Below, one piece after another: positions 26,002 to 46,562 of a DNA stretch of 46,562 bases. Source of the DNA: Candidatus Eiseniibacteriota bacterium. Lineage in GTDB: Bacteria; Eisenbacteria; RBG-16-71-46; SZUA-252. Below the pieces are notes generated by a model. The model was not told the origin of the DNA. It worked only from the letters and a program-made list of their open reading frames with translations, and searched no databases. Location: NCBI GenBank assembly GCA_041484545.1, contig JBGPHU010000002.1, positions 1 through 46,562 on the forward strand. Reading direction: 5' to 3'. The position numbers were made by a program, and so were the translations under genes. Positions within the stretch are counted from its first letter, which is position 1. Every line of letters begins with the position of its first letter.

Positions 26002-28602
26002 TTACCTCACCACCACATTGACCAACCTCCCCGGCACGATGATGACCTGCGCCACCGTCTTTCCGGCGGCGTAGGAGCGCACCTTGGGGTCGGCCAGGGC
26101 GGCCGATTCGATGGCGGCTTTGTCGGCGCCGGTGGGCACCTCGATGCTGGAGCGCACCTTCCCGTTGACCTGGAGCACCAGCGAGATCGTGTCGCGCTCC
26201 AGGGCCTCCTTCGAGGCCGTGGGCCAACCGGCCGTGAAGATGGATCCCTGGCCGCCCAGCCGGCTCCAGGCTCCCTCGGCGGTATTGGGGGCGAGCGGAG
26301 CGAGGAGGCGCGTGCCGAGGCTCATCGCCTCGGCGATCTCCGGAGCCGTCATATCTCCCCCGGAATCACGGTATTCGTCCAGGGCGTTCACGTACTGCAT
26401 CATCCCGCTCACCGCCGTGTTCAGATGCAGGCGGTCCATGTCGGTCAGGATCTGAGACGTGAGCTGGTGCACCCGGCGTCTCAGGTCACGGCGCGGCCCG
26501 GTCTGCGACCACGCGCCCGAATGCGACCGGCCCGGGCTGAGCGGCAGCGCTCCAGGCCCTGATGCCGCAGCAACATCCTGAACCAGCTTCCAGTACTTGA
26601 TCAGGAAGCGAAACGCCCCCTCCACGCCGCGGTCGTTCCACTCGGCGTCCTTCTCCGGCGGACCGATGAAGAGGGTGTAGAGGCGGACCGTATCGGTTCC
26701 GTAGCGCTCGATCAGGTCGTCGGGCGCCACCGTGTTCTTCTTCGACTTCGACATCTTGATACCGTTCTTCGTGATCATGCCCTGCGTGAAGAGCCGCTCG
26801 AAGGGCTCGGAGAACGAAACGAACCCCATGTCGCGGAACACCTTCACGATAAATCGCGAATAGAGAAGATGCAGTATGGCGTGCTCCACCCCGCCGATGT
26901 ACTGGTTCACGGGCAGCCAGCGGTTCACCGAGGCGGTGTCGAACGCATGCCGGTCGTTCTTCGGGCTCAGGAAGCGCAGGAAGTACCAGCTGGAATCGAC
27001 GAACGTGTCCATCGTGTCGGTCTCGCGCCGGGCGGCGCCCCCGCACTTGGGGCACTTCGCGCGCAGGAACGTTTCATTCGTCTTGAGCGGCGACTCCCCC
27101 GTCGGCTTGAACTCGACCTGATCGGGCAGGAGCACCGGCAGCTCGGATTCGGGCACGGGCTGGATGCCGCACTGCTCGCAGGTCACCATCGGAATGGGCG
27201 CGCCCCAGTAGCGCTGTCGCGAGATGAGCCAGTCGCGCAGTCGGTAATTCACGCGCGCCTCCCCCGCCGACTTCGCGGCGAGCGCTTCCACGATCGCGCG
27301 CTTCCCCACGGCGCTCGAAAGGCCGTCGAAGGCGCCCGAGTTCACGAGCTTCCCTTCCCCTTCGTACGCGGCGGCGCCGTCGTACGCCGGGCCTTCGGTC
27401 GCGCGCACCACCTCGACGATCGGCAGCTTGTACTTCGTCGCGAATTCGAAGTCGCGCTGATCGTGGGCCGGCACCGCCATGATGGCGCCGGTGCCGTAGC
27501 CCAGGAGCACGTAGTTGGCGATCCAGACCGGGATGGTGGCGCCCGTCAGAGGATGCACGGCACGGATTCCCGCTTCCGCGCCTTCCTTCTCCGTCTCGAC
27601 GGCGAAGCGATTTTCCATTCGAGCGCGTCGTAGACGCTCGACCAGATCGGACGCGGCGCGCGGCAGCTTCCCGCTCTCGCGCAGCCGCGCCACCAGCGGA
27701 TGCTCCGCGGCCAGCACGACGTAGGTCGCGCCGAGGAGCGTGTCGGGACGCGTGGTGAAGACCTCGATCGTGTCCTTCGATCCTTCGATCGGAAAGCGGA
27801 TCGTCGCGCCCTCGCTCCGGCCGATCCAGTTCGTCTGCATCGTCCGGACCTTCTCCGGCCAGTGGACGAGCTGCTCCAGATCGTGGAGCAGAGGCTCGGC
27901 GTATGCGGTGATCTTGAAGTACCACTGCTCGAGGTCGCGGATTTCAACCGTGGCGCCGCAGCGCTCGCAGGCGCCGTCCACCACCTGCTCGTTCGCGAGC
28001 ACGGTGTTGCACGAGGGGCACCAGTTCACGGCGCCCTTCGCGCGATAAGCCAGGCCGCGCTCGTAGAGCTTGAGGAAGAGCCACTGGGTCCACTTGTAGT
28101 ACGAGGGGTCGCAGGAAGCGATCTCGCGCTCCCAGTCGTAGGCCAGCCCCCAGTGGACCAACTGCTCCTTCATGCGCGCGATGTTCTTCTTCGTCCAGGT
28201 CGCGGGATGGATCTGGTTCTGGATCGCCGCGTTCTCCGCGGGCAGCCCGAACGCGTCCCATCCCATGGGGGTCAGAACCGAATGCCCCTGCATCCGCTTC
28301 AGCCTCGTGACCACGTCGCCCAGGATGTAGTTCCGGCCGTGTCCCACGTGGAGATCGCCCGAGGGGTACGGGAACATGTTGAGGCAGTAGAAGGGGCGCT
28401 CCGCCTTCATGGGGTCTTTGATCTCGAAGAGGGCCTCGTCCTTCCAGAGCTTTCGCGCGGCGCGCTCCAGCTCGTGGAACGGATAGGCGTTCCTGCGCGA
28501 AGACTCCTCGGCGCCCGGCGGCACGGGATGCGAGGCGTCGGGCGGCACGGACGGTTCGGTCCCGGGCTGTCCCGGATGTTCGTCTCGGATCGACTTACCC
28601 AC
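26002..28602 (-). CDS. leuS: Leucyl-tRNA synthetase
   Basis: HIGH-type motif [18 protein letters not shown] motif IKMSKSKKN, and the CP1 editing region. About 40 aa of Pro-rich N-terminal extension. The start overlaps the holA 3' end. Confidence 0.96.
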
Positions 28603-29563
28603 GGATGGCGCGCCTCACGGTCTGAACGAGTGTCGAGGCAAGCTCGGTGTCTCGGATCTCGCCGCGCTTGAGCGCGCGGTCAGCCCGGTAGACCTGGTCC
28701 AGCACCGCGCGCGCCTTGACCACTGGAAGCGGCGCCGAGGGGCGGGCGGCGCGGCGGTAGTAGAAGCTCTGCGGCTCCAGCGCCCCGAGGGCGCATTCGG
28801 CCAGCGCCCAGAGGGCGCTCGTCCCGCCGATGCCCTCGCGGGTCAGGGCTTCCGTTTCGGCGCGCGCTTCGGCCGCGGTTCCGGCGAGCACGGCCTGCGC
28901 CCACCGCTCCACCGAGGCGCCCGCCGTCGTCTCGCGCAGCGCATCGAGCGCGCGCGCGGGAACCCGGCCTTCGGCGTCGGCGTGCGCGGCGAGCTTCCGC
29001 ATCTCCTGGCGGAAGGAGAGAAGATCGGGAGCGCTTCTATATACGGCCTCGAGTGTGGCGCCGGGAAGCTTCACGCCTTCCTCGATCGCGATGATCCCCG
29101 CCCACTCGAGCCCTTCCCCTCCCCGCGCGCGGCAGAGCACGGTCGTCGCGATGGAGGCGAGCGCGCCCAGGAACTTGAGATCTTCCGGCTCGCGCGACGT
29201 CGTGACCAGCACCGAGACGCCTTCGCCGGGCGCCTGCGCCCACGCGAGAAGGGTCTCCTCCGTCGCGCTCCCCATCTTGGAGCCCTCGCGGATCCAGACG
29301 CGTTGGGCGCCGCCGAAGAGCGAGAGGGTCGCCAGAGCGCTCGCGAGGGTCTCGGCGCCGAGCACGTCCCCCTCCAGGCGCTGGAACTCGGCACCTTCCG
29401 CTACGGCCCCCGCGCGGAACGCCTCCGCGAGCCGGCTACGCAGGAATTCGTCGGGTCCGGCGCCGAGCGTGAGGGTCGGCAAGACGCCCCCGCCCGGGCC
29501 TCCGCGCAGCAGCGCCTCCGCGTCGCGGAGCGGCGTGACGCCTCCGTGGCGCCGGGTCACCAT
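28595..29563 (-). CDS. holA: DNA polymerase III delta subunit
   Basis: 322 aa, helical and Ala/Leu-rich. It occupies the conserved lptE-holA-leuS neighbourhood. The N-terminal region ([12 protein letters not shown]) is consistent with HolA. Confidence 0.6.
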
Positions 29564-30129
29564 CCCTGCACCGTGCGGCTCACGACCTGATCGGTCAGCT
29601 TCTGGATGACGTCCCTCCGTCCATCGGTCTCGGTCTTCGCGGCCTCGCTGCCCACGGGGACCACATTGTACGTGGTTCTCATCGTGAGGGCGTCCTCCTT
29701 CCAGAGGTCCTTGTTCTTGACCAGGTCGCGGAACGAGATCGCCACCGTGAGGACGATCTCGTACTCGGTGGCGCGCTCGGCCGAGGTGTACCCGAACACC
29801 TGGTTCTTATACGCCACGATGGTGCCGCGCAGGACGGCGTTGGCGTCGCGCTCCTGGGCGATGCGGAGATGACGGTCGTTCAGGAATCCGTTCACCATCG
29901 ATTGCGTGATGTCGTCGGAGAGTCCGAACTCGACGGTGTTGTTCCCGAAGGCCGGGATGGCGATCGTTTTCAGGTGCGGCGGGAGCGCGCTTCGAACCGT
30001 GTAGGCGCATCCGCCGGCCAGCGCGGCGAGCGCGGCGAGGAGGAAGGCGATGCCGAGGCTCGCGCGGAGGCGCGGGGTGAAACGGGTAGCGCTACCCCAC
30101 ATCCGCTGCGGGTGTGTCCTGGAAGCCAT
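29557..30129 (-). CDS. lptE: LptE-like LPS-assembly lipoprotein
   Basis: Lipobox LAALAGGCAY, about 170 aa mature length, and a position next to holA and leuS. An alternative start at 30102 (MWGS..) would reduce the overlap with the regulator gene. Confidence 0.55.
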   Translation of the reverse strand: MASRTHPQRMWGSATRFTPRLRASLGIAFLLAALAALAGGCAYTVRSALPPHLKTIAIPAFGNNTVEFGLSDDITQSMVNGFLNDRHLRIAQERDANAVLRGTIVAYKNQVFGYTSAERATEYEIVLTVAISFRDLVKNKDLWKEDALTMRTTYNVVPVGSEAAKTETDGRRDVIQKLTDQVVSRTVQGW

Positions 30130-31522
30130 AGAGTTTCATCCGGTACCGGAGTTTGTCCCTCTTCATCTGCAGCAGGCCGGCCGTCCGGCTCTGGTTTCCC
30201 CCCGAGCGGTCGAGGGCGCGCTGGATGATATCGCGTTCGATCTGTCCCAGGGTGCCTTCGAGGTCGAACCCTTCATCGGGAATCTGCCCCGACTCGAGCA
30301 CCGAGCGGAGCGTCTGGATCGACGAGGAGTCGCCTTTCGCGGACTGAGGCGTGATGGCGCTCGTCAGATGCTGGGTCACGATCTTGTTCCCCTGGGACAG
30401 GAGCACGATCCGCTCGAACAGGTTCCGCAGCTCCCGGATGTTCCCGGGCCACGGATAGGACAATAACACCTGTTCGGCGGCGGAATCGACCGCCTCGAAC
30501 GATTTCCCGAACTGCTTGTTGAACTGGGCGAGGAAGTGCTTGGCCAGGGGGAGGATTTCCTCGCGGCGCTCCCGGAGCGGCGGGACGCGGATCGGCACGA
30601 CCTTGAGGCGGTAGTAGAGGTCCTCGCGGAAACGCTGCTCCCGGACCATGGTCTCGAGATTCTGGTTCGTGGCCGAGATGACCCGCACGCTCACCGTGAT
30701 GTCCTTCGTGCCTCCGACGCGCTTGAACGTCATGCGCTCGAGCACGCGGAGGAGCTTCACCTGGATGGTGAGCGACATCTCGCCCACCTCGTCCAGAAAG
30801 AGCGTTCCGCCGTCCGCCAGCTCCAGCAATCCCTGCTTCTGCTGCCGCGCGTCCGTGAAGGCGCCCTTCTCGTGTCCGAAGAGCTCCGACTCCAGAAGCT
30901 CCCTGGGAATCGCGGCGCAGTTCACCTCGAGCATCGGCTTGTCGCGCCGCGACGAGAGCTCGTGGATCCAGTGCGCGATCAGCTCCTTCCCGGTGCCGCT
31001 CTCCCCCTCGATCAGGACGCTCGTGGAATCGCTCTGCGCGACCTGCTCCACGATCGTGTAGACCTGCTCCATGGCGGGGCTCCGCCCGCGGACGAACTCG
31101 CGCGAGAACTTCTGGCTCTTCTCCTGGCGATGGTGCTGCACCTCGCGGCCCAGGCTCTGCGACGAAAGCTCGCGCTCGAGCACGAGCAAGAGCTCCTCGC
31201 GGATCGGCTTTCCCTTGGTGAGGTAGTCCCGGGCGCCAAGGCGCATGGCCTGCACGGCGGTTTCGTGATCGGGCTCGCCCGTGAGCATGACCACGATCTG
31301 CTCGGGCCACTGCGCCCGGATTCTCTCCAGCACCTGGATGCCGGTGAGATCGGGCAGGCGGATGTCGAGGAGCACGAGATCTGCGGGCTCCTTCTCGAGG
31401 ATCTGAAGCCCGGCCTTCCCCGAATCGGCCGTGAGGACCTGATAACCCTCCGCCTTCAGCTCGCGCGGAAGGAAATGGCGGATCGTCTCGTCGTCATCGA
31501 TGACCAGTACCGTTGCCTTCAT
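30092..31522 (-). CDS. Sigma54-dependent response regulator (NtrC family; PrsR-like by context)
   Basis: Receiver domain (VLVIDDD..LLDIRLPD). AAA+ domain has GESGTGKE, a GAFTDA loop and the RFREDLYYRL region. C-terminal Fis-type HTH GNQSRTAGLLQMKRDKLRYRMK. Confidence 0.9.
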   Translation of the reverse strand: MKATVLVIDDDETIRHFLPRELKAEGYQVLTADSGKAGLQILEKEPADLVLLDIRLPDLTGIQVLERIRAQWPEQIVVMLTGEPDHETAVQAMRLGARDYLTKGKPIREELLLVLERELSSQSLGREVQHHRQEKSQKFSREFVRGRSPAMEQVYTIVEQVAQSDSTSVLIEGESGTGKELIAHWIHELSSRRDKPMLEVNCAAIPRELLESELFGHEKGAFTDARQQKQGLLELADGGTLFLDEVGEMSLTIQVKLLRVLERMTFKRVGGTKDITVSVRVISATNQNLETMVREQRFREDLYYRLKVVPIRVPPLRERREEILPLAKHFLAQFNKQFGKSFEAVDSAAEQVLLSYPWPGNIRELRNLFERIVLLSQGNKIVTQHLTSAITPQSAKGDSSSIQTLRSVLESGQIPDEGFDLEGTLGQIERDIIQRALDRSGGNQSRTAGLLQMKRDKLRYRMKLYGFQDTPAADVG

Positions 31523-31536
31523 TCAGGCTCCCCCGC

Positions 31537-33414
31537 TCAGGCGGCCGCGGGCAGGAGAATGCGGAAGCGGGTTCCCTGCCCCGGCGCGCTCACGACCTCG
31601 ATCGATCCCCCGTGGCGCTGCACGATCCCGTGCGCCACGAAGAGGCCCAGGCCGGTGCCCTTCGGCCGCGTCGTGTAGAACGGCTCGAAGAGGTGCGGCA
31701 GATGCTCGGGCGATATACCGGCTCCCGTATCCGAGACCTCGATCTCCACGCGCGGGGTCGGCGGGTTCCCGACGAGGCGCGCGCGGATCGTCACGCGGCC
31801 CTCGCCCTCGATCGCCTGGACCGCGTTCTGGATGAGGTTCAGAAAGACTTGGAGGAGCTGGTCGGTATCGGCCAGGACCTTGGGCCAATCATCGGCACCC
31901 TCGAGACGGATCTCGACTCCTCCCTCCTGGACCGACGGGGCCAGGGTCCGGAGGGCGCGGGCGGCCACGTCGGAGAGCGAGACGGGCCCCAGGGTGAGCA
32001 TTCGGGGCCTCGTGGCGGAGAGAAGGTCCTGGACGATGGAATTGAGGCGCGAGACTTCGCGAAGGATGAACTGGACGTCTACGCGCCGCTCGTCCCCCTC
32101 CGGAAAGCCCCGGCTCAGGTACTCCACCCCCGTCGCGATCCCGGTCAAGGGGTTGCGGATCTCGTGGGCGACGCTCGAAGCGAACCGCCCGAGAGCGGCA
32201 AGACGGTCCAATTGTCGGATTCGTTCTTCCATGCTGCGCACGTCCGAGAGATCGGTGAGCGTGGCCACCGCGCCGCGCGTCCGCCCCTCTGCGTCCCGGA
32301 GGGGGGCCGCGTTCACCTCGACCGGGATGGTGCTGCCGTCCTGCCGGCGCACGATGTGCTCGGAAGGCGCGCCGGCGCCGCTCTGGCCCAGCGCCCGGAG
32401 CAACGCCTCCTGCCAACCCTCGGCGCCGCCGATCTGATCGATGGTCTTCGCCAGCGTGGTTTCGCGCGGGGCTCCGAGGATCTCCTCGGCGGAGCGGTTC
32501 CAGGCCAGGATCTGGCCCTCGCGGTCCACCGCGACGACGCCGAGCGGCATGCTCTCGATCACGTCCTCCCGGAAACGCGCCTCGAGATCCAGCGCCTCGT
32601 TCAGGCTCAGGTTCACGCAGAGGGCGCCCAGCGCGGGCACGATCGCCTCGACCGAATCCTGGCGCGCCCGGTCCGATTCGCCGGCGATCCCCATGATCCC
32701 CACGAGCCGGTGAAACTGGCAGGGCGAGCACATGAGCCGTCCGTCCGTGTGGGCCCCGAGGGGCGCGCCCGTCAGGACGCACGACTTCCCTTCCACGCAC
32801 GATCCGGGGCAGGCCGGCTGGACTCCGCTCAGCCTTTCCTCGGGCATTTCGCCGCGGATCGGGACGGGATGCCAGGGGCCGCCCCGCGGGTCCCCCCAGG
32901 GGTCGGCCGGGAGGGTGGGCTCCCCTTCACCCAGCGTGAGCCAGCGCAGCCACTCGGGATCCATGTCGCGGAGCGATACGCGTCCGGACCGGGCTTCCGG
33001 CTCGCCGCCCGCGCCCAGACTCCAGATCGCGAACACCGGCGGATTGCCGCGCCTCAAGGCGAGCCAGAGACGGGGCTCGTTGAGCGCGCGCGCCAGGTAC
33101 TGGAGGAGCGTCTGGAAGGGGCTCGACCCGGGTCCGGGCACGGCGAACGCCATGAGCTCGCCCAGGCCCTTCAGCTGAACGCGGGTGGCGAGCTCCCGGC
33201 GGAAGTTGCCCTCCAGATCCCGGAGGAGGATCTCGACCAGCGCCTCGGCCGGATGGCTTGAGCTGGTCGCCGCCACGGGAAGCGATTCCGCGAGGGGCGG
33301 CAGGCCGCACAGGGCGCGGATCTCCTCGGCGCGCCGCCAGAGCGCCTCGAGGTCCCATCCCTGGGTCTTGTGGTCGGGTTTGGTCAAGGGGGAGCGGGTC
33401 CGCCGATGCCGCAA
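31537..33414 (-). CDS. Soluble sensor histidine kinase (GAF-like with Cys cluster, PAS, HisKA, HATPase)
   Basis: H-box SSVAHEIRNPLTGI, N-box FLNLIQNAVQA, G-boxes DTGAGI and GTGLGL. PAS segment MPLGVVAVDREGQILAWNRSAEEILG. No TM helix is seen. It ends 14 nt upstream of the regulator gene. Confidence 0.88.
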   Translation of the reverse strand: MRHRRTRSPLTKPDHKTQGWDLEALWRRAEEIRALCGLPPLAESLPVAATSSSHPAEALVEILLRDLEGNFRRELATRVQLKGLGELMAFAVPGPGSSPFQTLLQYLARALNEPRLWLALRRGNPPVFAIWSLGAGGEPEARSGRVSLRDMDPEWLRWLTLGEGEPTLPADPWGDPRGGPWHPVPIRGEMPEERLSGVQPACPGSCVEGKSCVLTGAPLGAHTDGRLMCSPCQFHRLVGIMGIAGESDRARQDSVEAIVPALGALCVNLSLNEALDLEARFREDVIESMPLGVVAVDREGQILAWNRSAEEILGAPRETTLAKTIDQIGGAEGWQEALLRALGQSGAGAPSEHIVRRQDGSTIPVEVNAAPLRDAEGRTRGAVATLTDLSDVRSMEERIRQLDRLAALGRFASSVAHEIRNPLTGIATGVEYLSRGFPEGDERRVDVQFILREVSRLNSIVQDLLSATRPRMLTLGPVSLSDVAARALRTLAPSVQEGGVEIRLEGADDWPKVLADTDQLLQVFLNLIQNAVQAIEGEGRVTIRARLVGNPPTPRVEIEVSDTGAGISPEHLPHLFEPFYTTRPKGTGLGLFVAHGIVQRHGGSIEVVSAPGQGTRFRILLPAAA

Positions 33415-33500
33415 CGACAGGAGCGGCAGTCGTGAAGCTTCACCCGCCGCACGCTAGCACCGGGTGCGACGGAGGGTCAAGCGGAGGACCGTCCGGGGAG

Positions 33501-34235
33501 CTAGTGAGCTCCCTCGCCCCGAGCCATGACTTTCACGGTGGCTGCCATGATCTTAAGATCGAGCAGGATGCGACCGTTCTTGAGGTAGTAGAGATCGTAC
33601 TGGAGCTTGCGATTCGCGCTGTCCACCGAGGTGTCGTAGCGGGATTTCACTTGGGCGAGCCCGGTGATGCCCGGGAGCGCGCTACATCGCTTGGGATAGT
33701 CGGGGATCGAAACCGAGAGCGACTCCACGAAAATCGGCCGCTCCGGGCGCGGTCCCACGAGACTCATGTCGCCGAGCATCACGTTCCAGAGCTGGGGGAC
33801 CTCGTCGAGGCGGGCGCGGCGCAGGAACCTCCCCACGCGCGTGACGCGCGAATCCTGGGGGGAGGCCCAGACCGGACCCGTGTTTCGCTCCGCGTCGGTG
33901 ATCATGCTGCGGAACTTGTAGATCCGGAACGGCCGTCCGAATGTATCGGCCTTGCGGCGTTCGGTCGCGGGCGCGTCGCCGTTCCCGTTGCCGTTGCCGT
34001 TGCGCCGAACTCGGCGGCGGTTGATGCCTACGCGAATCTGGCTGTAAAAGACCGGTCCCGGACTATCGAGTGCTACCGCCGCAGCAATGACGAGACAGAC
34101 TGGAAGAAGAAGAATGATTGCGATCGAGGATGCCGTGAGGTCGATTGACCTTTTGAAGATCCGCTCGAAAGCCCGCCCCTCCCCCGAATTCTGCCTCGCC
34201 GCCCAACGCGCCGAAGGGAGAATCATGATGCTCAA
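33501..34235 (-). CDS. Initiating sugar-phosphate transferase (bacterial sugar transferase family, EpsL/WbaP C-terminal type)
   Basis: Motifs KRSIDL, one TM helix, DSPGPVFYSQ, YKFRSM, DEVPQLWNVMLGDMSLVGPRP. The listed start is TTG at 34235; an ATG at 34226 is the alternative. Confidence 0.88.
   Translation of the reverse strand: MSIMILPSARWAARQNSGEGRAFERIFKRSIDLTASSIAIILLLPVCLVIAAAVALDSPGPVFYSQIRVGINRRRVRRNGNGNGNGDAPATERRKADTFGRPFRIYKFRSMITDAERNTGPVWASPQDSRVTRVGRFLRRARLDEVPQLWNVMLGDMSLVGPRPERPIFVESLSVSIPDYPKRCSALPGITGLAQVKSRYDTSVDSANRKLQYDLYYLKNGRILLDLKIMAATVKVMARGEGAH
33981..34004 (-). repeat. Imperfect hexanucleotide repeat encoding (Asn-Gly)4 inside the sugar transferase gene
   Basis: The plus strand reads GTTCCC GTTGCC GTTGCC GTTGCG. 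On the coding strand this translates to NGNGNGNG within an apparent insertion of about 25 aa. Confidence 0.85.
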
Positions 34236-34441
34236 CCCACCCTCTGCTTTCGAGCCGGGCTACGATGCCGATCCGGGAGCCGAGACTTAGGTGTGCTCGG
34301 TCGTGGCCCGGAGGTTCTACGGCGGAGCCTTCGCGGGCACCGGCACCGCGCGAGGCATCGTGGAAGGCTGGGTGCGAACGCCGGCGGAGAGTGGACACAC
34401 TACCACCACTGCGTTGAATGCCCTGCCCCACGACGCCCAGA

Positions 34442-34470
34442 AGTATAGCAACGGCATGGTGGGAGCGCAA
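34442..34470 (-). promoter_or_regulatory. Sigma70-type promoter (TTGCGC-17-TATACT, extended TGC) upstream of the sugar transferase gene
   Basis: On the minus strand, TTGCGC (34470-34465) is followed by a 17-nt spacer ending in TGC and TATACT (34447-34442). The 9-mer TGCTATACT is identical to the one at uvrC. This would give a 5' UTR of about 200 nt. Confidence 0.35.
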
Positions 34471-35925: not shown

Positions 35926-35940
35926 GCAGCTAACGTGCCA
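35926..35940 (-). promoter_or_regulatory. Sigma54 -24/-12 promoter element TGGCACGTTAGCTGC
   Basis: The minus strand reads TGGCACG-TTAG-CTGC, against the consensus TGGCACG-N4-TTGCW. GG and GC have the exact canonical spacing. It lies about 85-100 nt upstream of the porV-like ATG (35842), in a 263-nt intergenic region. A sigma54-dependent regulator is encoded downstream on the same strand. Confidence 0.6.
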
Positions 35941-37246: not shown

Positions 37247-38677
37247 TTACTCGCCGCGTTCGATCGAAGTCAACCGCGTCGTCACCATCTGCGCGACGAC
37301 CTCGAGGAGCAGAAGCGTCCCGGCCAGGTTCTCCCGCCCGTACTCCGGATCGCCGCAGAGCAGAAATCCCAGGAGCTTTCCGCGGTGGCTTAGCGGAACG
37401 GCGCAAGCCGCCTCGCACGCCGCGATTTGTTTCGCGTTCTCCACGTAGATCGGGATCAAGCCGAGATCGTCCGATCGCCCGCGGAGATGGATTGCATGTC
37501 GCGAGCCGCTCAGCTCGGATGCAAGCGGCTCATCGGGTCCGACGCGTTCCACCGGCGGCGGCCGGAGCGTGCTCCCGGCGATCGTGTACTCGGAGGCGCC
37601 GTTCCAAGCGAGGAAGAGCGTCACCGGCGTGACGCCGGTGATGTCGGCCGCGCGACCGGGAATGAGACGGCAGAGGTCCTGACGGGTGGACGTCGCGTCC
37701 AGCTCGTGCGAGAGCCTGCTCCAGACCACCTCCGGATCGAAGCGCGATGTGTAGAGATAGGGCTCGAGAAGCTGCCGGAGCTTCAGCTGGAGCCCTCCAG
37801 AGATCGCGAGCGCGGCGAGGCCCAGGAGCGTGGCGCAGAGGATCGAGATCCAGGCGGTGCGCGCCAGGGACCACCCGGTGAGATGGGAGATTTGGACGAT
37901 GCCCACCGACAGGATGAGCGCGCCGATTCCCAGGGCGAACGAGAGGGTCTCGTAGAAGGGCCGGAGCTGCGCGGTGACGGTGGCCTCGACGCCGCGCCGC
38001 TTGACGAGCGATAGAGGCATCATGAGCGAAAGGAACCCGAACGCGATCGAGGACTTCGACACGTCCCAGAGCGAGAGCCGGCCGAGCAGGATGCTGCTCG
38101 AGATGAAGACCAGGCACCACGCGAAGAGGAAGATGATGCCGAGCACCGCAGGAGAGAACGCGCGACGCCAGCGGGAGGAGAGCGCGACGTACGTGGATTC
38201 GAAGTTCGCGCTCATGAGCGAGACGTTGAGGAGCAGCATGGCGAGCACGAGGACTCCGAACGTGGTGACCGGGAGCGAGGCGACCGACGCGTCGCCGACC
38301 ACGGTGCGGCCGAGCGGCGTGAGCGCGTAGAGCGCCACGATCATCCCGGTCGAAAGGAGGGCCTGGATCCACACGTACACGCGCCATCCGTGGTTTTGCT
38401 GCGGATCGGTCCCCCGCGCGAGGGTGATCGAGAGAAGCAGCCAGGCGAGCGACACCGGGAGCCAGCAGACGAGCGAGAGGTCCAGCCAGTAGTTCCGCTC
38501 TCCGAGTGGAATCGCGGTGATCGCGCGGACCCACCCGAGCTGCTGCAGACCCAGCAGGAGGAGTGCTACGCCCGCGAGAAGCGTGACGACTCGGTTCGGT
38601 TTCCAAATGAGAATCACGGTGCCGGACACCAGCGCGAGCGTGGCGCTGATCAGAAGCGGGAGGAGGAGGAAGCTCAT
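37247..38677 (-). CDS. Polytopic membrane protein with C-terminal GAF domain (resembles the N-terminal two thirds of PrsK, no kinase domain)
   Basis: The ATG at 38677 overlaps the deacetylase stop (ATGA), so the listed 38863 start is rejected. About 10 TM helices are followed by a GAF-like segment (..IPIYVENAKQIAACEAACAVPLSHRGKLLGFLLCGDPE..). No H-box or ATPase motifs are present. Confidence 0.7.
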   Translation of the reverse strand: MSFLLLPLLISATLALVSGTVILIWKPNRVVTLLAGVALLLLGLQQLGWVRAITAIPLGERNYWLDLSLVCWLPVSLAWLLLSITLARGTDPQQNHGWRVYVWIQALLSTGMIVALYALTPLGRTVVGDASVASLPVTTFGVLVLAMLLLNVSLMSANFESTYVALSSRWRRAFSPAVLGIIFLFAWCLVFISSSILLGRLSLWDVSKSSIAFGFLSLMMPLSLVKRRGVEATVTAQLRPFYETLSFALGIGALILSVGIVQISHLTGWSLARTAWISILCATLLGLAALAISGGLQLKLRQLLEPYLYTSRFDPEVVWSRLSHELDATSTRQDLCRLIPGRAADITGVTPVTLFLAWNGASEYTIAGSTLRPPPVERVGPDEPLASELSGSRHAIHLRGRSDDLGLIPIYVENAKQIAACEAACAVPLSHRGKLLGFLLCGDPEYGRENLAGTLLLLEVVAQMVTTRLTSIERGE

Positions 38678-39555
38678 GCGGTCCCGTTCACGGAGCGAGG
38701 GTCGAGGATTCCCAGCTCGGCGAGCCGAACCGCAAGCGTCGTGAACCGCCCGACGCGCAGAATCCGGCGCAGAATCCCCTCCGTGCTGCCCAGGCGCGCG
38801 TAGTGTGTCCACTTCGAGGACCGCGGGAATCCCACGGACGGCTGCTCCGGATCGATCTCCCACGGATGGACGTTCACGGCGAGAGGGATCCGTCCCCTCT
38901 TGTGATACCCGGCCGCCGCGAGCGAGACCCAGGCCGGCAGGAGTCGCAAGTACGCCCCCGCGAGCACCGGAATCCGGATCGGTCCCAGAGGGACGGTGGG
39001 CAGCGGAAACTCGGCGATGTCGCGCGCTCCGGCCGGAATCCGAGCCGGAACGACCGGGCCTTCCGGGTATCCGTACCGACGACGCCGAATCGGGTAGATG
39101 CTGGAGTCATACGTGTAGCCGGTCTCGCGCAGCACCTCCAGCGCCCAGAGCGTGCTCCGGTTGATGCTGTAGCTGGGGGCGCGAAAGCCGACCACGGCGG
39201 ATCCAGATAGGTCCTCGAGGATGAGGCGGGAGTCCAGCGCTTCCTCCCGGAACTCGGCGGGCGTGAGCTCGGTGATCATGCGATGGGAGACGCCGTGGGA
39301 CGCCACCTCGTGACCGCGCCCGGCGATGCGCGCCACCAGTCCGGGATGACGTCGCGCGATCCATCCCAGGGTGAAGAAGGTGCCCTTGGCGCCGGACTCG
39401 TCGAACAGATCGAGGAGTCGTTCGACGTTCCGCTCGACGCGAGGTTCAAAGCTGGGCCAGTCCTCCCTGGAAACGCGCCCTGCGAACGCCTGCACCTGGA
39501 AGTAATCCTCGACGTCGACGCTCAGCGCAAGAGGAGGTTCACGTCGCGCGGCCAT
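38674..39555 (-). CDS. Polysaccharide deacetylase, XrtA/PEP-CTERM-locus subfamily type (NodB fold plus DUF3473-like C-terminus)
   Basis: N-terminus LALSVDVEDYFQVQAF, then GAKGTFFTLGWIARRHPGLV, GHEVASHGVSH and GFRAPSYS. Confidence 0.8.
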   Translation of the reverse strand: MAARREPPLALSVDVEDYFQVQAFAGRVSREDWPSFEPRVERNVERLLDLFDESGAKGTFFTLGWIARRHPGLVARIAGRGHEVASHGVSHRMITELTPAEFREEALDSRLILEDLSGSAVVGFRAPSYSINRSTLWALEVLRETGYTYDSSIYPIRRRRYGYPEGPVVPARIPAGARDIAEFPLPTVPLGPIRIPVLAGAYLRLLPAWVSLAAAGYHKRGRIPLAVNVHPWEIDPEQPSVGFPRSSKWTHYARLGSTEGILRRILRVGRFTTLAVRLAELGILDPRSVNGTA

Positions 39556-39622
39556 GGCCGGAGCATAGGTTTCCTGGCGGGATCTGTGAAGGAGGAACTC
39601 TGCTCGGGTAATCTACGGCGAA

Positions 39623-41477: not shown

Positions 41478-41845
41478 GGTGCGTCCTCCCCCTCTGCTGT
41501 CGAGCAAATGGACGTACCGCCATGGTGCTTAGGTCCACGGCGGCCCGGCCAGCATCGACAGCGCTCCGGAGGACCTCCCGGCGCACGATCTTTAGCTCCG
41601 CGGCTCTGCGTCCTGCCCTTTCGGACAGTTTGCTCTGAGCATGGACAGGCGGTTCGCCCGCCGATCCCCCCGTCAACGGGTTGAGCAGATTCGGGGCCAC
41701 CGAAAAGTTGCAGTGTGCACGGCGGTGTTCGCGGGTTCAGAGCGGCAGGTTGGGGCGAATCCGGGGGCGTTTCGAGTGACTTGCGTGCAGGATGCGTGTT
41801 GAACTCTGCACGGCCGCGACGGTTAGATTGCGATGAAAGCCCGAC

Positions 41846-42862
41846 TCAGGGCAGAAGGATGAGGCGCTCGCGCACGGAGGCGAGGCCGACCGTTCCGATC
41901 GATTCGTAGTAGCCGGGAGCCACGCGGTCCCCTCGCAAGGTCATCCGCGGCCAGGAAAGAATGGTGTCTCCCGCGGGGAACGATCCGTCCGCGATAGTGG
42001 CGATGACGCGCCCCGTGAGATCGTAGATGCGGATGTGGGCGACCTGGTCTGAGGAGCCGCCCACGTGGATCACGAAATGGACGGCGGCGCTCGAGGGATT
42101 CGGGTAGGCATGGAGCGGGGGCGTGGTCGCGATGGTCGCGGAGCTCAGGGGCGGGGTCGAGTCGCCCGCTCCGATCGAGATGGTGATTGAAGCGGTGGCG
42201 GGGCCGTCGCCGCACGAATCCGCCCACGTCGCGCGGTAGCGGTACGTGTGCCGCGACCTCACGTTCGTGTCCCGGTACTTTGTTTGGCCGAGGTCGGCCA
42301 CTGTTCCGAGAAGGATCAAAGGACCCGAACCGCTGGCGCGCCACAGGTGGAGCGCCGAGGAAAGGGAATCCCTGGTCGCCGCCCACGAGAGGAGCACGCC
42401 GCTGGAGTCTTCGACGGCGTCGAACCGCGTCGGAGACACGTGGGGCGTTTCGCAGCCCGCCTGAGCGGCTGGAATCTCGGCGCCGGTTTCCGCTGAGGCG
42501 ACGTTCGAGTATCTGGAGGAGTTTCCAGCGTCGTCGTAGGAACAGAGTATGAAGTAGTAGGTCGTCTCGGGAGCGAGGCCCACCACGCTTGCCGAGTCCG
42601 CCTGTCCCGCGGGCGACGGAGTCGGAAGGCCTGCCGCGGAGCTCGCGGCGTTCCACCAACCCAGCGTGTCGGCTCCCACCTGCGAGCTGGAGTAGCGCAG
42701 GTCGTACAGGGAGGCGCGCCCAACGTCGGCGTCATCGCCGGGCGCGGACCACTCGAGCGTGACGGAATAGGGCGAGCTTGCCGCAGCGCACGGACTCGCA
42801 GAGAACGCCGCGAATAGAAAAAACGCGGCGCACGAGCCTGGTAGGCGCCTGAGACGTGGAAT
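41846..42862 (-). CDS. Secreted FN3-repeat protein with T9SS-type C-terminal domain; apparent ATT initiation codon (or start-codon loss)
   Basis: The ORF track begins at GTG 42679. My own translation shows the frame stays open upstream to TAA at 42887-42889. The upstream stretch encodes a signal peptide (PRLRRLPGSCAAFFLFAAFSASPCAAASS) and the family motif EWSAPGDDADVGRASLYDLRYSS. No ATG, GTG or TTG occurs in that stretch. An ATT at 42862-42860 lies 8 nt after GGAGGG. The C-terminus AYPNPSSAAVHFVIHV..IRIYDLTGRVI..VAPGYY is CTD-like. Confidence 0.6.
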   Translation of the reverse strand: MPRLRRLPGSCAAFFLFAAFSASPCAAASSPYSVTLEWSAPGDDADVGRASLYDLRYSSSQVGADTLGWWNAASSAAGLPTPSPAGQADSASVVGLAPETTYYFILCSYDDAGNSSRYSNVASAETGAEIPAAQAGCETPHVSPTRFDAVEDSSGVLLSWAATRDSLSSALHLWRASGSGPLILLGTVADLGQTKYRDTNVRSRHTYRYRATWADSCGDGPATASITISIGAGDSTPPLSSATIATTPPLHAYPNPSSAAVHFVIHVGGSSDQVAHIRIYDLTGRVIATIADGSFPAGDTILSWPRMTLRGDRVAPGYYESIGTVGLASVRERLILLP

Positions 42863-43180
42863 CGTCCGGACCCTCCGCGCGAAGCCTTACGAAGCGTGAA
42901 TATGTTGTCGAGTTGGTTGTTGGGGATAGAATGCGATTATTCTGAAAATTGTAATTTGCAAGAACTGATCCACTCGACGGGTGAAACGCAACGCACCCGC
43001 GCAAGCCGCTCAAGCGAAAGTCGTTCCGTATCCCTGGAAGAGCCTTTGTCGTCAGGGGATAGGCAACTGGAGCGTACAGACACGTTGCAAGGCTTGTACG
43101 GTTCAGTGCGCGGAGCAACTACTGCCCGGGAAAGCGGGGACGGACCATTTCCCAGCCGTTCGGGAGTTCGGTGGCGCGTA

Positions 43181-44590
43181 TTAGGGCAAGGATGGGCGGG
43201 CCCGTCGAGCCCGGGAGGCGAATCTCCAGCGAAGCAGGTAGGCGGCAGGAGCCAGGAGAAAGAGAAGATCGAGAGGCGGCGGCCCTCCCCTCGGGGGGCC
43301 GGACCCGTACATGGCGGCGAGAGAGCCGCAGCCGAAAATCGACTCGCCCGGGAGCCGTCTCGCCACGGGCTGCGAATTCTGCGTCACTCCCCCTTCCCTT
43401 CCATCCACGATGCCGTTCGAATTGCAGTCGGGGTTCGAGGGGCAGGAATCGAGCACATCCGGGATGCCGTCCCCGTCCTGATCGAGATAGTTCCCGTAGG
43501 CGATTTTCAGGGCCGACGTCGTCGCGTCGTAGTAGCTGATGATGGGCCTGTCCGAGCTGTCCAGCTTGAGGGAGCTGTACGCCCCAACGTCTCCTGCGCT
43601 GTCCACGGTCTGAACCGTCCAGACTCCGCCCGCGCGGGATGCGTATTTGAGGGAAGTCGTGGCGGCGTCATAGTAGGAAATGTGTGGATTCCCGGCCGAG
43701 TCCAGAGCCAGGGACGTGACGGAGCCGTCACCGATCGGGCCGACCCCGGCCACGTCCTGGAAGCTCCATGTGCTCGTTGTCGGGGTCAGGGTCAGCGCAG
43801 AGGCATACCGGAGCTGAAACGACGTTCCGGCGATGTAGCTGATGCGAGGCAGACTCGTTGTCCTGTCGATCGCGATCGAGTTGAAATATCCCGGTTCTCC
43901 GACGGAGTCGACCACCTGCGTGGCAAAGATGCCTCCAGCCCCGTTGGCCAGCCGGAGCCGCCGGGCGGTGCCGTCGAAGTAGGCAATGTAGAGAGTTCCC
44001 AGCGCGTCGAGACCCAGGCTGTTGTACCTGCCGCGTCCGAACGTGGGATCCGCGAAGGTGCGGGCCCAGGAGGATCCGCTCGCGAAGGCGAACTTGAGCC
44101 GGTCCGCGGTCGGCAAACCGTCGGGCGCCTTCCAGTAGTAGTAGCTGACGCGCGGAACGCCGGAGCCGTCCACCTGGATCGAATTGAAGAATCCCATTCC
44201 CCCCAAGCCCGTCTCGGAGTCGATGACCTGAATCAACCCCTGTCCCTGATTGTTCTTCCAGTACTTGAGCTGGCCGGTCGCGCCCAGGTAGGCGACATGC
44301 ACGATGCCGGCGGCATCGACCGCGAGGGACGTGTATCCTCCGCCGGCGTCCACCCGCAACAGGTTCCACGTCAGAGTCTGGGGATTCAGCGCCGCGTACT
44401 TGAGATTGCCCAGCGCATCGGAGTAGGCGATCACGGGGTAGCCCTGGATGAGTCCGAGGGAACTCGAGATACCGCTGGCTGAGCCCACGTCGACGAACTG
44501 AAGCGCCCACGTTTCCCCCGACGCGGGCCCCGGGGCTCCTGCCAGGAGCCCAAGGGACAGCGCCAGGAGGGCGATCACGCGGCCGCGCAT
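43181..44590 (-). CDS. Secreted 7-bladed beta-propeller-like repeat protein with TSP3-like Ca-binding motif and tripartite C-terminal sorting-like tail
   Basis: ATG at 44590 (MRGRVIALLALSLGLLAG..signal peptide). Seven repeats of about 45 aa match the pattern G.y.SlalD..G.p.isYyd....LkyA. These are followed by DQDGDGIPDVLDSCP, and then GCGS...PPP-LDLLFLLAPAAYLL-RWRFASRARRAR. Confidence 0.65.
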   Translation of the reverse strand: MRGRVIALLALSLGLLAGAPGPASGETWALQFVDVGSASGISSSLGLIQGYPVIAYSDALGNLKYAALNPQTLTWNLLRVDAGGGYTSLAVDAAGIVHVAYLGATGQLKYWKNNQGQGLIQVIDSETGLGGMGFFNSIQVDGSGVPRVSYYYWKAPDGLPTADRLKFAFASGSSWARTFADPTFGRGRYNSLGLDALGTLYIAYFDGTARRLRLANGAGGIFATQVVDSVGEPGYFNSIAIDRTTSLPRISYIAGTSFQLRYASALTLTPTTSTWSFQDVAGVGPIGDGSVTSLALDSAGNPHISYYDAATTSLKYASRAGGVWTVQTVDSAGDVGAYSSLKLDSSDRPIISYYDATTSALKIAYGNYLDQDGDGIPDVLDSCPSNPDCNSNGIVDGREGGVTQNSQPVARRLPGESIFGCGSLAAMYGSGPPRGGPPPLDLLFLLAPAAYLLRWRFASRARRARPSLP

Positions 44591-44615
44591 GATGGCGAGG
44601 CCCCCGGCGAGGGTC

Positions 44616-45230
44616 TTAGGAACGGTGGACACTCCGCAGTCTCTTGAGAACCCGAAGTCCGCAGACATTGACGAAAAGATACCATCCCGCCGGGCGGAAC
44701 CCAACCTTGGTATGCGCGACCATGGACGTCTCGTTGCCGTAGTCGATGTGAGAGATCAGGCGGCTCCTCCGCTCGTTCCTCATCAGTTCGGTCGCGGCAA
44801 CGAGGATCTGGCTCCAGACGCCCCGACCGCGAAAGGCCTCCGAGGTGAACGCATCGTAAGCGTAGAGCGCGTCGCCGGGTATGGTGATGGGGTAGTGGTA
44901 CCGCTCCTCGAATAGCAGGCCCTTGGCCGAAAACCATTCGTATCCCACCACGGCCTCATCGGCAATCGCGACGACGCAGTGCTCTCCCGCCTCGAAGCGT
45001 CGTTCGTACGTGGAGCGCTTGTCTAGACAACGGACCAAGCCCTCGAGATCGCGCGCGTCGGCCGGACGCGTGGACATCGACTCGACCTGCCGCTGCGCGG
45101 CGCGGGGGTAGCCGTTGAGTTCGAACCGCTGGAAATACGCGACTCGAATGAGGTGAAACGGGGTCCGGTTGAGCGCCGCGCGGACGATCGAGACGGTGTC
45201 CTTTCCCCGGAACTTCTCGAGGGGGTTCAT
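44616..45230 (-). CDS. GNAT-family N-acetyltransferase
   Basis: The ATG at 45230 overlaps the upstream stop (ATGA). Acetyl-CoA motif context AFRGRGVWSQILVAA. The listed 45539 start is an extension that overlaps the upstream gene. Confidence 0.6.
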   Translation of the reverse strand: MNPLEKFRGKDTVSIVRAALNRTPFHLIRVAYFQRFELNGYPRAAQRQVESMSTRPADARDLEGLVRCLDKRSTYERRFEAGEHCVVAIADEAVVGYEWFSAKGLLFEERYHYPITIPGDALYAYDAFTSEAFRGRGVWSQILVAATELMRNERRSRLISHIDYGNETSMVAHTKVGFRPAGWYLFVNVCGLRVLKRLRSVHRS

Positions 45231-46339
45231 CGACCGGCCCGGAGCAGTCGCTTCGCGACCGCCGCCAACGCGCTCCTTCCTCGATTGGTTCCCTGGATCA
45301 GCCGCCCCGCCAGCGTGCGGTTGTAGAGGTTCACACTCATCAGCTCGCGCCGATGGCTGGTCCAGTGAGCCTTGAACTCCCACCCACCCCGTAGCATATC
45401 GATCTCCTTGATCCCCTCCCGGCAGGCTTCCTCGATCAGATCGTAGAGGAGCACCCTCGCCACGCTGCGGCTCTCCCATTCCGGATCGAACCCCTGCTGG
45501 TAGGTGAACACGCGCCCCTGGAGATTGAAGCAGTACCACGCGGCGATCGGCGCCCGGTTGTGGCGGAGGAACCGCAAGCGCAGCCAGCCCGCCTCATTCA
45601 AGAGCGATGCTACTTCGCCATGAAACCGCACCAGAGGCTCGCCACGAAAGTCCGACTGGGTTCCCTTCTGGATCGCGCGCCGGTTGTGCAGGTCGAACAG
45701 CTCCCGTATCGCGTTTGGAATCGCATTTGAATCACAGCCCTCGTAAACCACCCCGGGCTCTTCATGCAGCTTGCTTCGGGCGCGTTTCAAATTGTGTCTC
45801 GTCGAACGACTCAGCGTTTCCCGGAATGCCTCGAAGTCCCCTTCCAGGGGAATGTAGGCCGCCGTCGAGACCGTCCGTACGGAAACATCGAACGGGATCG
45901 AGCGTCCGCGGACGAATTCGATGAGCTTCGCGTCCTCGGCAACGTGGGACAGCTGCATGACATCCCACCCAGGGCAGTCACTTCGCAGGAACGTGATGAC
46001 GGCGTCCAGGCATTCGGCCGCGTCTTGCTCTGCGCAGATCACGTCCACATGGTCGGAATATATTTCGGTGCTGCCGCAATAACTCAGAACGCGGCCCGGC
46101 ACAATCGCGCCCTTGACACGCATGAGGCGGGACGCGAGAGGGAAAATCCCCACCAATGCGTCCTCGCGATAGATGAAGAGGAGCACGAGATCGTACGACT
46201 TGCCGAAATGCGTCCACCAGGTGTGGATCCACTCCCAGGTGCAGAACGTCGAGGGTCGAGCCATCGCAAGGACCAGTCGATTCCACTCCTCGCGGATTTG
46301 GTGGAACCGCTCTACGTCGGCGCGTTCGACCCGCAGCAT
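45227..46339 (-). CDS. CelD/BioF2-like (FemAB-related) acyl/aminoacyl transferase
   Basis: 370 aa. The N-terminus W..L......STFCTWEWIHTWWTHFG, followed by ..LVLLFIYREDALVGIFPLA, is typical of the CelD-like GNAT_6 family found in EPS loci. Confidence 0.65.
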   Translation of the reverse strand: MLRVERADVERFHQIREEWNRLVLAMARPSTFCTWEWIHTWWTHFGKSYDLVLLFIYREDALVGIFPLASRLMRVKGAIVPGRVLSYCGSTEIYSDHVDVICAEQDAAECLDAVITFLRSDCPGWDVMQLSHVAEDAKLIEFVRGRSIPFDVSVRTVSTAAYIPLEGDFEAFRETLSRSTRHNLKRARSKLHEEPGVVYEGCDSNAIPNAIRELFDLHNRRAIQKGTQSDFRGEPLVRFHGEVASLLNEAGWLRLRFLRHNRAPIAAWYCFNLQGRVFTYQQGFDPEWESRSVARVLLYDLIEEACREGIKEIDMLRGGWEFKAHWTSHRRELMSVNLYNRTLAGRLIQGTNRGRSALAAVAKRLLRAGR

Positions 46340-46562
46340 CAGTTCGTCGCGCTCCCTTCCAGCATCTCCGAGTACAAGTTGAGGTGAGCCGACACCATCG
46401 CGTCGACGGTGTACCTCTGAGCTGTGCTCCGCGCGTTTTCGCCGATGCGACGGGCGAGATCCGGATCGCCGAGGAGCATCCCGATGCGCGCCGCCAGGCC
46501 TTCCACGTCACCCAGCTCGACCAGGTAGCCGCTGACCCCTTCCTGGACCAATTCGACATTCC
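46339..46562 (-). CDS. Glycosyltransferase family 1 (C-terminal fragment; gene continues beyond the window)
   Basis: C-terminal GT-B pattern VQEGVSGYLVELGDVEGLAARIGMLLGDPDLARRIGENAR. The stop overlaps the next start (TGATG). Confidence 0.65.
   Translation of the reverse strand, partial: NVELVQEGVSGYLVELGDVEGLAARIGMLLGDPDLARRIGENARSTAQRYTVDAMVSAHLNLYSEMLEGSATN

Follow-up and report, generated by a model that had tools for sequence, protein, structure and literature searches.

A probable Candidatus Eisenbacteria version of the XrtA-type surface-matrix locus, with the xrtA-epsI pair missing from its conserved position

This work describes a gene locus on a 46,562-bp contig of a Candidatus Eiseniibacteriota bacterium (JBGPHU010000002.1); the whole contig is the window analyzed here, and the reading stops at position 46562. 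The locus forms a run of 18 minus-strand genes, from 46562 down to 25143, that combines two sets of parts. The first resembles the XrtA/PEP-CTERM exosortase system and includes a polysaccharide deacetylase, a membrane sensor with a GAF domain, a separate PAS histidine kinase, and a sigma-54-dependent regulator. The second recalls type IX secretion (the T9SS) and comprises an outer-membrane barrel of the PorV/PorQ family and three secreted FN3 proteins, two of which end in a T9SS-like C-terminal domain (CTD). On the basis of related loci, we regard the run as probably the Candidatus Eisenbacteria version of an XrtA-type exopolysaccharide/surface-matrix locus, with the xrtA-epsI gene pair removed from its conserved position. 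The features are collected in Table 1.

Table 1. Features of the window, listed down the minus strand and then for the plus-strand block; scores are followed by the model cutoff where one applies
Feature	Position	Strand	Evidence and remarks
GT4 glycosyltransferase, C-terminal 73 aa	46339-46562	-	PF00534 and generic GT4 matches; truncated by contig end
CelD/BcsL-type acyltransferase (Acetyltransf_6), 370 aa	45227-46339	-	PF13480 96 bits; overlaps its neighbours by 1 and 4 nt
GNAT acetyltransferase, 204 aa	44616-45230	-	PF00583; ATGA overlap with upstream gene; homologue in L025
Secreted repeat protein, 469 aa	43181-44590	-	Thrombospondin-type-3-like repeats
First FN3+CTD protein	41846-42862	-	fn3 31.6 bits; TIGR04183 22.8 vs 23, just below
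150-bp spacer at the relatives' xrtA-epsI site	41700-41850		blastn against L012
Sigma-54-type -24/-12 element	41685-41699	-	TGGCCC-N5-CTGC; pattern match
c-di-GMP-I riboswitch aptamer	41536-41644	-	RF01051 55.2 bits vs gathering threshold 35, E 3.3e-8
Terminator-like hairpin	41505-41550	-	5' arm is aptamer 3' strand; short U run after; alignment and folding
Secreted FN3x2 protein, no CTD, 292 aa	40599-41477	-	fn3 59.8 bits; ribosome-binding site GGGGGAGGA 7 nt before ATG
Secreted FN3 protein with T9SS type A-like CTD, 328 aa	39623-40609	-	TIGR04183 25.6 vs 23; FlgD_ig 27.2 vs 27
XrtA-system polysaccharide deacetylase	38674-39555	-	TIGR03006 304.5 vs 276.2, full length; Polysacc_deac_1 and DUF3473
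Multi-pass membrane protein with GAF domain	37247-38677	-	PrsK sensor-half homologue, no kinase
Secreted PEGA + DUF5683 protein	36106-37209	-	PF08308 23.9 bits; PF18935 38.7 bits; kept in most loci
Sigma-54-type -24/-12 element	35926-35940	-	TGGCAC-N5-CTGC; ∼100 nt before barrel gene
Outer-membrane barrel, PorV/PorQ family, C-terminal SPOR	34493-35842	-	NF033709 151.6 vs 90; SPOR 25.6 vs 21
Small polyprenyl-phosphate sugar-phosphate transferase (initiating enzyme)	33501-34235	-	PF02397 202.7 bits
Soluble PAS histidine kinase	31537-33414	-	PAS, HisKA, HATPase_c
NtrC-family sigma-54-dependent response regulator	30092-31522	-	Response_reg, Sigma54_activat, HTH_8
lptE	29557-30129	-	PF04390
holA	28595-29563	-	TIGR01128 70.9 vs 80
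leuS	26002-28602	-	TIGR00396 1025 bits
Plus-strand block, part 1		+	secA, topA, two xerC/D-like recombinases, aspartate/ornithine carbamoyltransferase-family gene, dapA, dapB
Plus-strand block, part 2		+	proS, uvrC, ogt, metallo-beta-lactamase/beta-CASP nuclease-family gene, SNF2 helicase, GH57 enzyme

The relatives comprise 13 distinct syntenic loci, nearly all labelled or inferred to be Candidatus Eisenbacteria; paired names (L010/L011, L008/L009, and L022/L025) stand for one distinct locus each. Homologues of the membrane-GAF protein (n = 88) are nearly all ∼475 aa long, apart from a few shorter entries, and their contigs are mostly titled Candidatus Eisenbacteria. The core order begins with an FN3+CTD gene, followed in some loci by exosortase and EpsI genes, and continues through a leader, the FN3x2 gene, a second FN3+CTD gene, the deacetylase and membrane-GAF genes, and in some loci a small PEP-CTERM gene. 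The second half consists of the PEGA/DUF5683 gene, the barrel with SPOR, the sugar transferase, the PAS kinase, the sigma-54 regulator, lptE, holA, and leuS, the last three standing in this order 3' of the regulator in every related locus reaching that far. Core order persists down to 35 to 39% identity of the sensor protein. Some loci are without one or two core members, and two contigs stop before the last genes. In L017, the PEGA/DUF5683 gene (4221-5186) lies upstream of the exosortase rather than after the sensor gene, and in L109, a fused exosortase-EpsI gene (3046-4674) is inverted relative to the locus; module order is therefore not fully fixed. Every locus that keeps this part contains both a PorV/PorQ-family barrel with SPOR and FN3 proteins with a TIGR04183-type CTD. 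The combination, which an earlier note on this DNA had proposed as a hybrid of new architecture, is therefore real and recurs in relatives, yet it is a lineage variant of the XrtA locus and not exosortase-free by design, as 6 of the 13 relatives carry an exosortase. Our literature search, including searches for exosortases or T9SS in Eisenbacteria, found no paper describing this arrangement.

In those six loci (L010/L011, L012, L014, L017, L024, and L109), the first two FN3 genes flank the exosortase and EpsI genes, which are separate in L012, L014, and L017 and fused into one gene in the other three. The XrtA model TIGR03109 gives 224 bits for the L010 protein and 270 bits for that of L024 (cutoff, 208), and the L012 protein scores 165 against 105.6 with the general exosortase model. 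The Cys, Arg, and His residues proposed to be catalytic by Haft et al. (PMC1569441) are invariant in the relatives' exosortases. A small gene stands between the membrane-GAF and DUF5683 genes in three exosortase-plus loci (L010/L011, L024, and L109). Of the small proteins encoded after the sensor gene, those of L010 and L023 end in a canonical PEP-CTERM tail and that of L024 in a PEP-like one; the L023 protein (11711-12391) also has a "choice-of-anchor N" domain (NF038141, 103.7 bits), and its tail reads ...DVPEPGTPWTLAACLAGLTFATARRKK.

When the window is aligned to L012 with blastn, the flanks align continuously around ∼1.7 kb of L012 (5282-6979, with the exosortase at 5322-6191 and EpsI at 6188-6856) that has no counterpart in the window, where only the short spacer of Table 1 is found. 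By this alignment, the window is a copy of the locus that lacks the xrtA-epsI pair, which has presumably been lost or relocated in this genome. The pair is also missing in six other distinct loci (L008/L009, L015, L022/L025, L023, L107, and L108). On a neighbour-joining tree built from sensor, kinase, and regulator, exosortase-plus and exosortase-minus loci interleave: The window (minus) is sister to L012 (plus), L015 (minus) is sister to L017 (plus), and L010 and L024 (plus) form a group with L023 (minus). The tree therefore implies that the pair was lost or relocated independently at least three times.

Relocation leads to the best-surviving alternative, namely that a complete XrtA/PEP-CTERM system persists, with exosortase and EpsI moved elsewhere in the genome and PEP-CTERM substrates scattered. 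In L023, the 10 kb flanking the membrane-GAF gene on each side contain no exosortase, yet a canonical PEP-CTERM protein is still encoded in the locus, so relocation is possible, and the inverted gene of L109 indicates that the pair can move within the locus. The window retains an intact XrtA-specific deacetylase and PrsK-like sensor, and according to Haft (2006; PMC1569441), most PEP-CTERM genes form single-gene operons scattered over the genome. On the other hand, the 46.5-kb window contains no PEP-CTERM ORF (open reading frame), Pfam scans of the chosen ORFs of its 25-kb plus-strand block gave no exosortase, and L025, the closest long relative, has none within 10 kb upstream. Two scans of species-representative genomes returned no Eisenbacterial exosortases beyond three in-locus copies, and the exosortase-less assemblies VBOR01 and VBOX01 gave nothing; these scans were pattern-limited and insensitive, and the genomes are incomplete metagenome-assembled genomes. 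Weighing both sides, we consider a relocated but complete system possible, though somewhat unlikely. An exosortase of another contig, L026, was ruled out as a relocated Eisenbacterial copy by its GC content (41% versus 67%).

Most of the XrtA-locus markers named in the earlier note proved generic. Of the six, the deacetylase alone scores above the cutoff of its curated model (TIGR03006). The membrane-GAF protein, taken there for a PrsK-like protein, has a single NCBIfam match, to positions 25 to 434 of the 679 of TIGR02916 (PrsK), at 53 bits against a cutoff of 300, and the same single match recurs in 35 of 36 members of its family. It is thus a true homologue of the N-terminal sensor part of PrsK but has no kinase and is not an equivalog. 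For the soluble PAS kinase, the best NCBIfam match is AtoS, and its kinase core aligns to PrsK positions 464 to 679 at 100 bits. Judged from these matches, PrsK is represented by homologous but split parts, the membrane-GAF protein and a separate PAS kinase. The membrane-GAF gene overlaps the deacetylase gene by 4 nt.

The 270-aa N-terminal domain of the kinase (within 32600-33414) is conserved and has no Pfam match. A metal or redox site is suggested by its four invariant cysteines (CPG-x9-10-C ... C-x2-C-x-F) together with a GGPWH motif. The regulator is 77 to 93% identical in relatives; as a candidate PrsR, it reaches 380.7 against 502.6 with TIGR02915, and the AtoC, NtrC, and LuxO models score higher. 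The supposed FemAB/CelD-like marker scores 20.5 against 260.35 with TIGR03019 and has only generic PF13480 matches. The sugar transferase, thought to be EpsL-like, is a short generic Bac_transf enzyme that falls below both TIGR03025 (278.8 versus 295.6) and TIGR03013 (250.9 versus 393). A full-length homologue of the truncated glycosyltransferase, in L022/L025, scores 157 bits with TIGR03088, for which the cutoff is 409.

The second set of parts is built around the barrel, whose PorV-like nature is borne out by the PorV/PorQ subfamily model NF033709. The match spans barrel residues 45 to 319, and the L010 orthologue scores 171.6. All other NCBIfam matches are to PorQ, PorV2, and PorV, with PorQ scoring above PorV. 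A sequence search of the Protein Data Bank (PDB) with the barrel gave nothing useful.

The FN3+CTD gene next to the deacetylase, which overlaps its upstream gene by 11 nt, encodes the stronger of the two CTDs; it passes TIGR04183, as the earlier note's T9SS-type reading predicted, and the first FN3+CTD protein falls just short. The FN3x2 protein between them is 64 to 73% identical in relatives, and the first FN3+CTD protein is 53 to 54% identical to its L012 and L017 homologues. In some other exosortase-less loci, the orthologue of the latter is shortened or missing.

To characterize the CTD, the last 95 residues of the 328-aa protein were used as the query of an exhaustive search, which replaced an earlier word-index search with a 105-aa CTD that had given only 5 candidates. 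The exhaustive search retrieved 14,475 representatives. Among the best 150 are 99 single-match proteins (80 to 1812 aa long), in which the CTD lies ≤5 aa from the C-terminus in 78 and ≤20 aa in 97. Ten long examples carry unrelated passengers (beta-helix, Kelch, FG-GAP, M14 and S8 peptidases, GH16, and FN3 arrays), and 9 of the 10 pass TIGR04183. In a sequence ranking against the PDB, PorZ comes first (E 1.8e-5), followed by PorU (6e-4) and FlgD (0.02). A model of the CTD alone (predicted local distance difference test [pLDDT], 87; predicted template modeling score [pTM], 0.76) has its best fold matches in PorZ (5m11; E 6.6e-4, 30% identity) and PorU (6za2; template modeling score [TM], 0.69 to 0.70), with FlgD next. 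A fold search with the full-length FN3+CTD model (pTM 0.37) was dominated by tandem FN3 proteins and was uninformative on the CTD. Given its extreme C-terminal placement on diverse proteins, the TIGR04183 passes, and the PorZ and PorU matches, the CTD appears to behave like a T9SS type A sorting tag, albeit with modest scores.

These results bear on a second alternative, which takes the CTDs for ordinary Ig domains like those of FlgD and the barrel for a generic porin of the FadL/PorV superfamily (e.g., for polysaccharide or lipid passage), without any type IX link. By Pfam, FlgD_ig just passes and Por_Secre_tail is below threshold; FlgD structures come close behind in the fold search, and some top CTD relatives carry 9 to 15 internal tandem copies of the domain. 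For the barrel, the equivalog scores for PorV and PorQ stay under their cutoffs, and the PDB gave no sequence match; none of the T9SS core genes occurs in the window, and our literature search found nothing on T9SS in Eisenbacteria. However, the domain stands at the very C-terminal end of proteases, glycosidases, propellers, and beta-helix proteins of widely differing size, as a sorting tag would, it is recognized by TIGR04183 in 9 of 10 such proteins, and the CTDs of PorZ and PorU rank above FlgD by sequence and by fold, which counters the view, allowed for in the earlier note, that the CTDs are merely FlgD-Ig folds. In addition, the barrel passes the subfamily model and otherwise matches only PorQ, PorV2, and PorV. 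We regard the absence of a type IX link as rather unlikely.

Our preferred reading of this part is that the barrel would anchor the CTD proteins, the two working as a pair, by analogy with known systems. In Porphyromonas, PorQ holds PorZ via an uncleaved CTD. The PorV-PorU and PorQ-PorZ pairs of that genus are similar in that a barrel is encoded beside type A-like CTD proteins, and the closest counterparts of the window's CTD are those retained by PorZ and PorU. The linkage of the barrel and CTD genes also resembles that of the PorP/SprF shuttle-cargo pairs of Flavobacterium, where shuttle barrels are often encoded beside their cargo (PMC12618676). The window differs from these T9SS pairs in belonging to another phylum, in a barrel that is below the equivalog level and carries SPOR, in having no translocon or motor genes in view, and in its setting within an exosortase-type polysaccharide locus. 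Exopolysaccharide synthesis and CTD display may be functionally linked.

Regulatory elements, which had gone unnoticed in the earlier note, provide further evidence of conservation. Upstream of the FN3x2 gene, the non-coding sequence is better conserved than the genes. A sigma-54-type element (TGGCAC-N5-NTGC, with CTGC in most loci) is present there in 10 of 10 loci tested, with a conserved GTGCAG...CTGCAC repeat ∼100 bp upstream. The second element, before the barrel gene, recurs in 9 of 9 loci, at -89 to -112, and has a conserved upstream block, TGTACGCAA-N-TGCACA. As the pattern occurs 7 times in the window against 5.9 expected, which is not above chance, the evidence for both elements is their conservation across loci. 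The blocks ∼100 to 130 bp upstream of both elements could be the binding site of the locus regulator. Sigma-54 motifs upstream of PEP-CTERM genes, with PrsK and PrsR, were reported by Haft (2006; PMC1569441).

Directly behind the first element lies a cyclic di-GMP (c-di-GMP)-I riboswitch aptamer (GEMM-I, RF01051), which is found at the same site in 8 relatives, above threshold at 48.8 to 56.4 bits, and has 7 covarying base pairs. It resembles other GEMM-I aptamers in its full-length match, two helices, GNRA tetraloop, covariation, and position in the leader of surface/matrix genes. The 3' strand of the aptamer is shared with the terminator-like hairpin, so bound c-di-GMP is predicted to permit read-through; control of the leader by c-di-GMP is a prediction from this competition. 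Hairpin energies are -24.8 kcal/mol in the window and -26.5 to -39.7 kcal/mol in L012, L008, L015, and L023; in L008 and L015, the stem is perfect, with a U run of 4 to 6 and about -36 to -37 kcal/mol. The platform in the window combines a GC-rich hairpin with a poor U tract, in a high-GC organism. Unlike the usual GEMM-I, this riboswitch directly follows a sigma-54-type motif; if both work, transcription would need two signals, an activated enhancer-binding protein and (as predicted) c-di-GMP.

Several observations weigh against the reading of the window as an XrtA-type locus with built-in T9SS-like parts. The first concerns what is missing. No exosortase (TIGR02602/TIGR03109) was found in the window by tblastn with the L012 and L010 exosortases, and Pfam scans of the chosen ORFs gave no Exosortase_EpsH; EpsI (TIGR02914) had no tblastn match below E = 0.1; and PEP-CTERM (TIGR02595) was found neither among the proteins scanned with NCBIfam nor by a regular expression that recovers the L010 protein, apart from one ORF antisense within secA, which was judged spurious. 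These searches agree with the earlier note, which saw neither an exosortase nor a canonical PEP-CTERM protein in the window. Likewise, none of the T9SS core genes (SprA/Sov, PorK/L/M/N, and PorU) and no Wza/Wzc-type export genes or PrsT were seen in the window. The second concerns scores. The regulator, kinase, sugar transferase, and acyltransferase are below XrtA-specific cutoffs, the barrel is below both equivalogs (PorQ NF033711, 85.9 versus 220; PorV NF033710, 47.2 versus 250), and the two CTD scores are marginal. The third concerns the genes and the leader themselves. In the first FN3+CTD gene (42680-42886), the signal peptide is preceded by none of the start codons ATG, GTG, and TTG; the sole plausible start is ATT at 42862, 8 nt after GGAGGG, and the corresponding position is ACT in L012 and ATG in L010 and L017. 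The riboswitch is weak in L024 and was not detected in L022, L107, and L108, and the window hairpin, with a mismatched lower stem and only AUUUG, is weaker than those of relatives; the riboswitch may be leakier in this genome. Finally, the left part of the locus (43181-46562) varies among relatives, and the organism is uncultured, with all functional steps inferred from sequence, so that the immediate value of the locus is as a defined comparative and biochemical target.

The overall layout of the window bears on whether these genes form one unit. Genes were chosen by third-position GC and by family searches (Pfam and NCBIfam) on large ORFs, as the GC content of 65 to 71% produces many long spurious ORFs. 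Both lines support the statement of the earlier note that all genes from 46562 to 26002 are on the minus strand; all ORFs are intact, with one cut by the contig end. Its further claims also stand: Stop and start codons overlap at 7 of 17 junctions (by 1, 4, 11, 4, 38, 7, and 8 nt), and the array ends in lptE-holA-leuS with overlapping codons, directly following and overlapping the regulator gene. A single 20-kb operon is ruled out by six sizeable intergenic gaps (67 to 368 bp) and two internal promoter motifs. A plus-strand block of housekeeping genes occupies the other 25 kb of the window, so co-orientation alone is weak evidence for a single unit. That the minus-strand genes are instead independent co-oriented operons (exopolysaccharide, surface proteins, two-component system, and housekeeping), with polysaccharide synthesis uncoupled from the CTD proteins and barrel, agrees with these gaps and motifs, with the unrelated genes of the plus-strand block, with a left third that is not conserved across relatives, and with the absence of the whole left part and of the FN3, deacetylase, PEGA, and barrel genes from L016 and of the PEGA gene from L107 and L108, but is quite unlikely given that core order is kept at the sensor identities cited above in at least nine loci, that the sigma-54 type of the two internal promoter motifs fits the one sigma-54 regulator of the locus, and that one riboswitch leader precedes the FN3 genes and the overlapping deacetylase/sensor pair.

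Under the reading that we favor, an XrtA-type locus in its Eisenbacterial version, the parts would work together as follows. The membrane-GAF sensor and the separate PAS kinase would phosphorylate the NtrC-type regulator, which would in turn activate two sigma-54 promoters, whose motifs are conserved and whose activity is inferred. The first promoter would be followed by the riboswitch, at which c-di-GMP would let transcription proceed into the FN3, deacetylase, and sensor genes; the second would drive the barrel gene. Glycosyltransferases, acyltransferases, the initiating sugar transferase, and the deacetylase would build and modify a polysaccharide. The PorQ/PorV-like barrel, itself tied to peptidoglycan via SPOR, would keep the FN3+CTD proteins at the cell surface. 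We tentatively extend this to a proposal that is itself improbable in our estimate: An XrtA-type locus permanently recruited T9SS-style parts under sigma-54 and c-di-GMP control, and the CTD-barrel pair can replace exosortase/PEP-CTERM sorting. Such replacement would explain the repeated loss of xrtA-epsI with the rest of the locus intact.

Compared with the XrtA/PEP-CTERM system described by Haft (2006; PMC1569441), the locus shares the TIGR03006 deacetylase, a PrsK-like sensor, an NtrC-type sigma-54 regulator, sigma-54-type motifs with a conserved upstream element, and the sugar transferase, GT4, and acyltransferase genes, and the loci of relatives hold an XrtA-type exosortase, EpsI, and PEP-CTERM proteins. 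In contrast to that system, the window lacks these last three, its PrsK is split, and PrsT and Wza/Wzc-type genes were not seen; added to it are the barrel with SPOR, the PEGA/DUF5683 protein, three FN3 proteins (two with CTD), the c-di-GMP riboswitch, and the junction to lptE-holA-leuS. The split PrsK, the built-in barrel and CTD FN3 proteins, the sigma-54 motif followed by a riboswitch, and the repeated loss of xrtA-epsI look new.

Exosortase/PEP-CTERM sorting and type IX secretion are usually seen as separate surface-display routes of Gram-negative bacteria, and the exosortase mechanism is still largely unproven. The Eisenbacterial loci offer a natural experiment, as proteins with T9SS-like tags and a PorV/PorQ-like barrel accompany the same locus in every case, whether or not the exosortase pair is present. 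A comparison of such genomes could reveal the contribution of the exosortase and whether one sorting route can stand in for the other.

The variable left part of the locus contains the glycosyltransferase, two acyltransferase genes, and a secreted repeat protein. In L025, the closest long relative of this part, the sequence past the window's end continues with GT4, deacetylase, GT2, two GT4, and Wzy-like genes. A scan of species genomes found relatives of the CelD-like protein only in other phyla, at 28 to 37% identity. On the L026 contig (another lineage), separate exosortase and EpsI genes lie a few genes from two CelD-like acyltransferase genes (the regions concerned are 3764-5244 and 10001-12341), and one of the two acyltransferases is 46% identical to that of the window. 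This type of acyltransferase therefore accompanies exosortases elsewhere too, despite failing TIGR03019. The secreted repeat protein has no family match and, among the loci compared, occurs in the window and L022/L025 only. Its C-terminus (43181-43400), ...LPGESIFGCGS...GPPPLDLLFLLAPAAYLLRWRFASRARRARPSLP, consists of a Cys-Gly motif, a short hydrophobic helix, and an Arg-rich tail, all kept in the L022 homologue; it resembles a sorting signal, though no NCBIfam model matches the tail even at E = 1.

The three essential genes at the other end also lie side by side, with codons overlapping, in the leuS-lptE-holA cluster of E. coli and other Proteobacteria. The window differs in its order, lptE-holA-leuS, and in the overlapping sigma-54 regulator gene upstream. 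A weak TonB_C-like gene (25143-25973, minus strand) carries the run past leuS, and the two co-oriented blocks converge at ∼24.9 to 25.1 kb; the stretch 24400-25140 has a lower GC content (62%) and no gene assigned. Within the plus-strand block, two XerC/XerD-type tyrosine recombinase genes (5863-6783 and 15161-16060) lie ∼9 kb apart amid the housekeeping genes.

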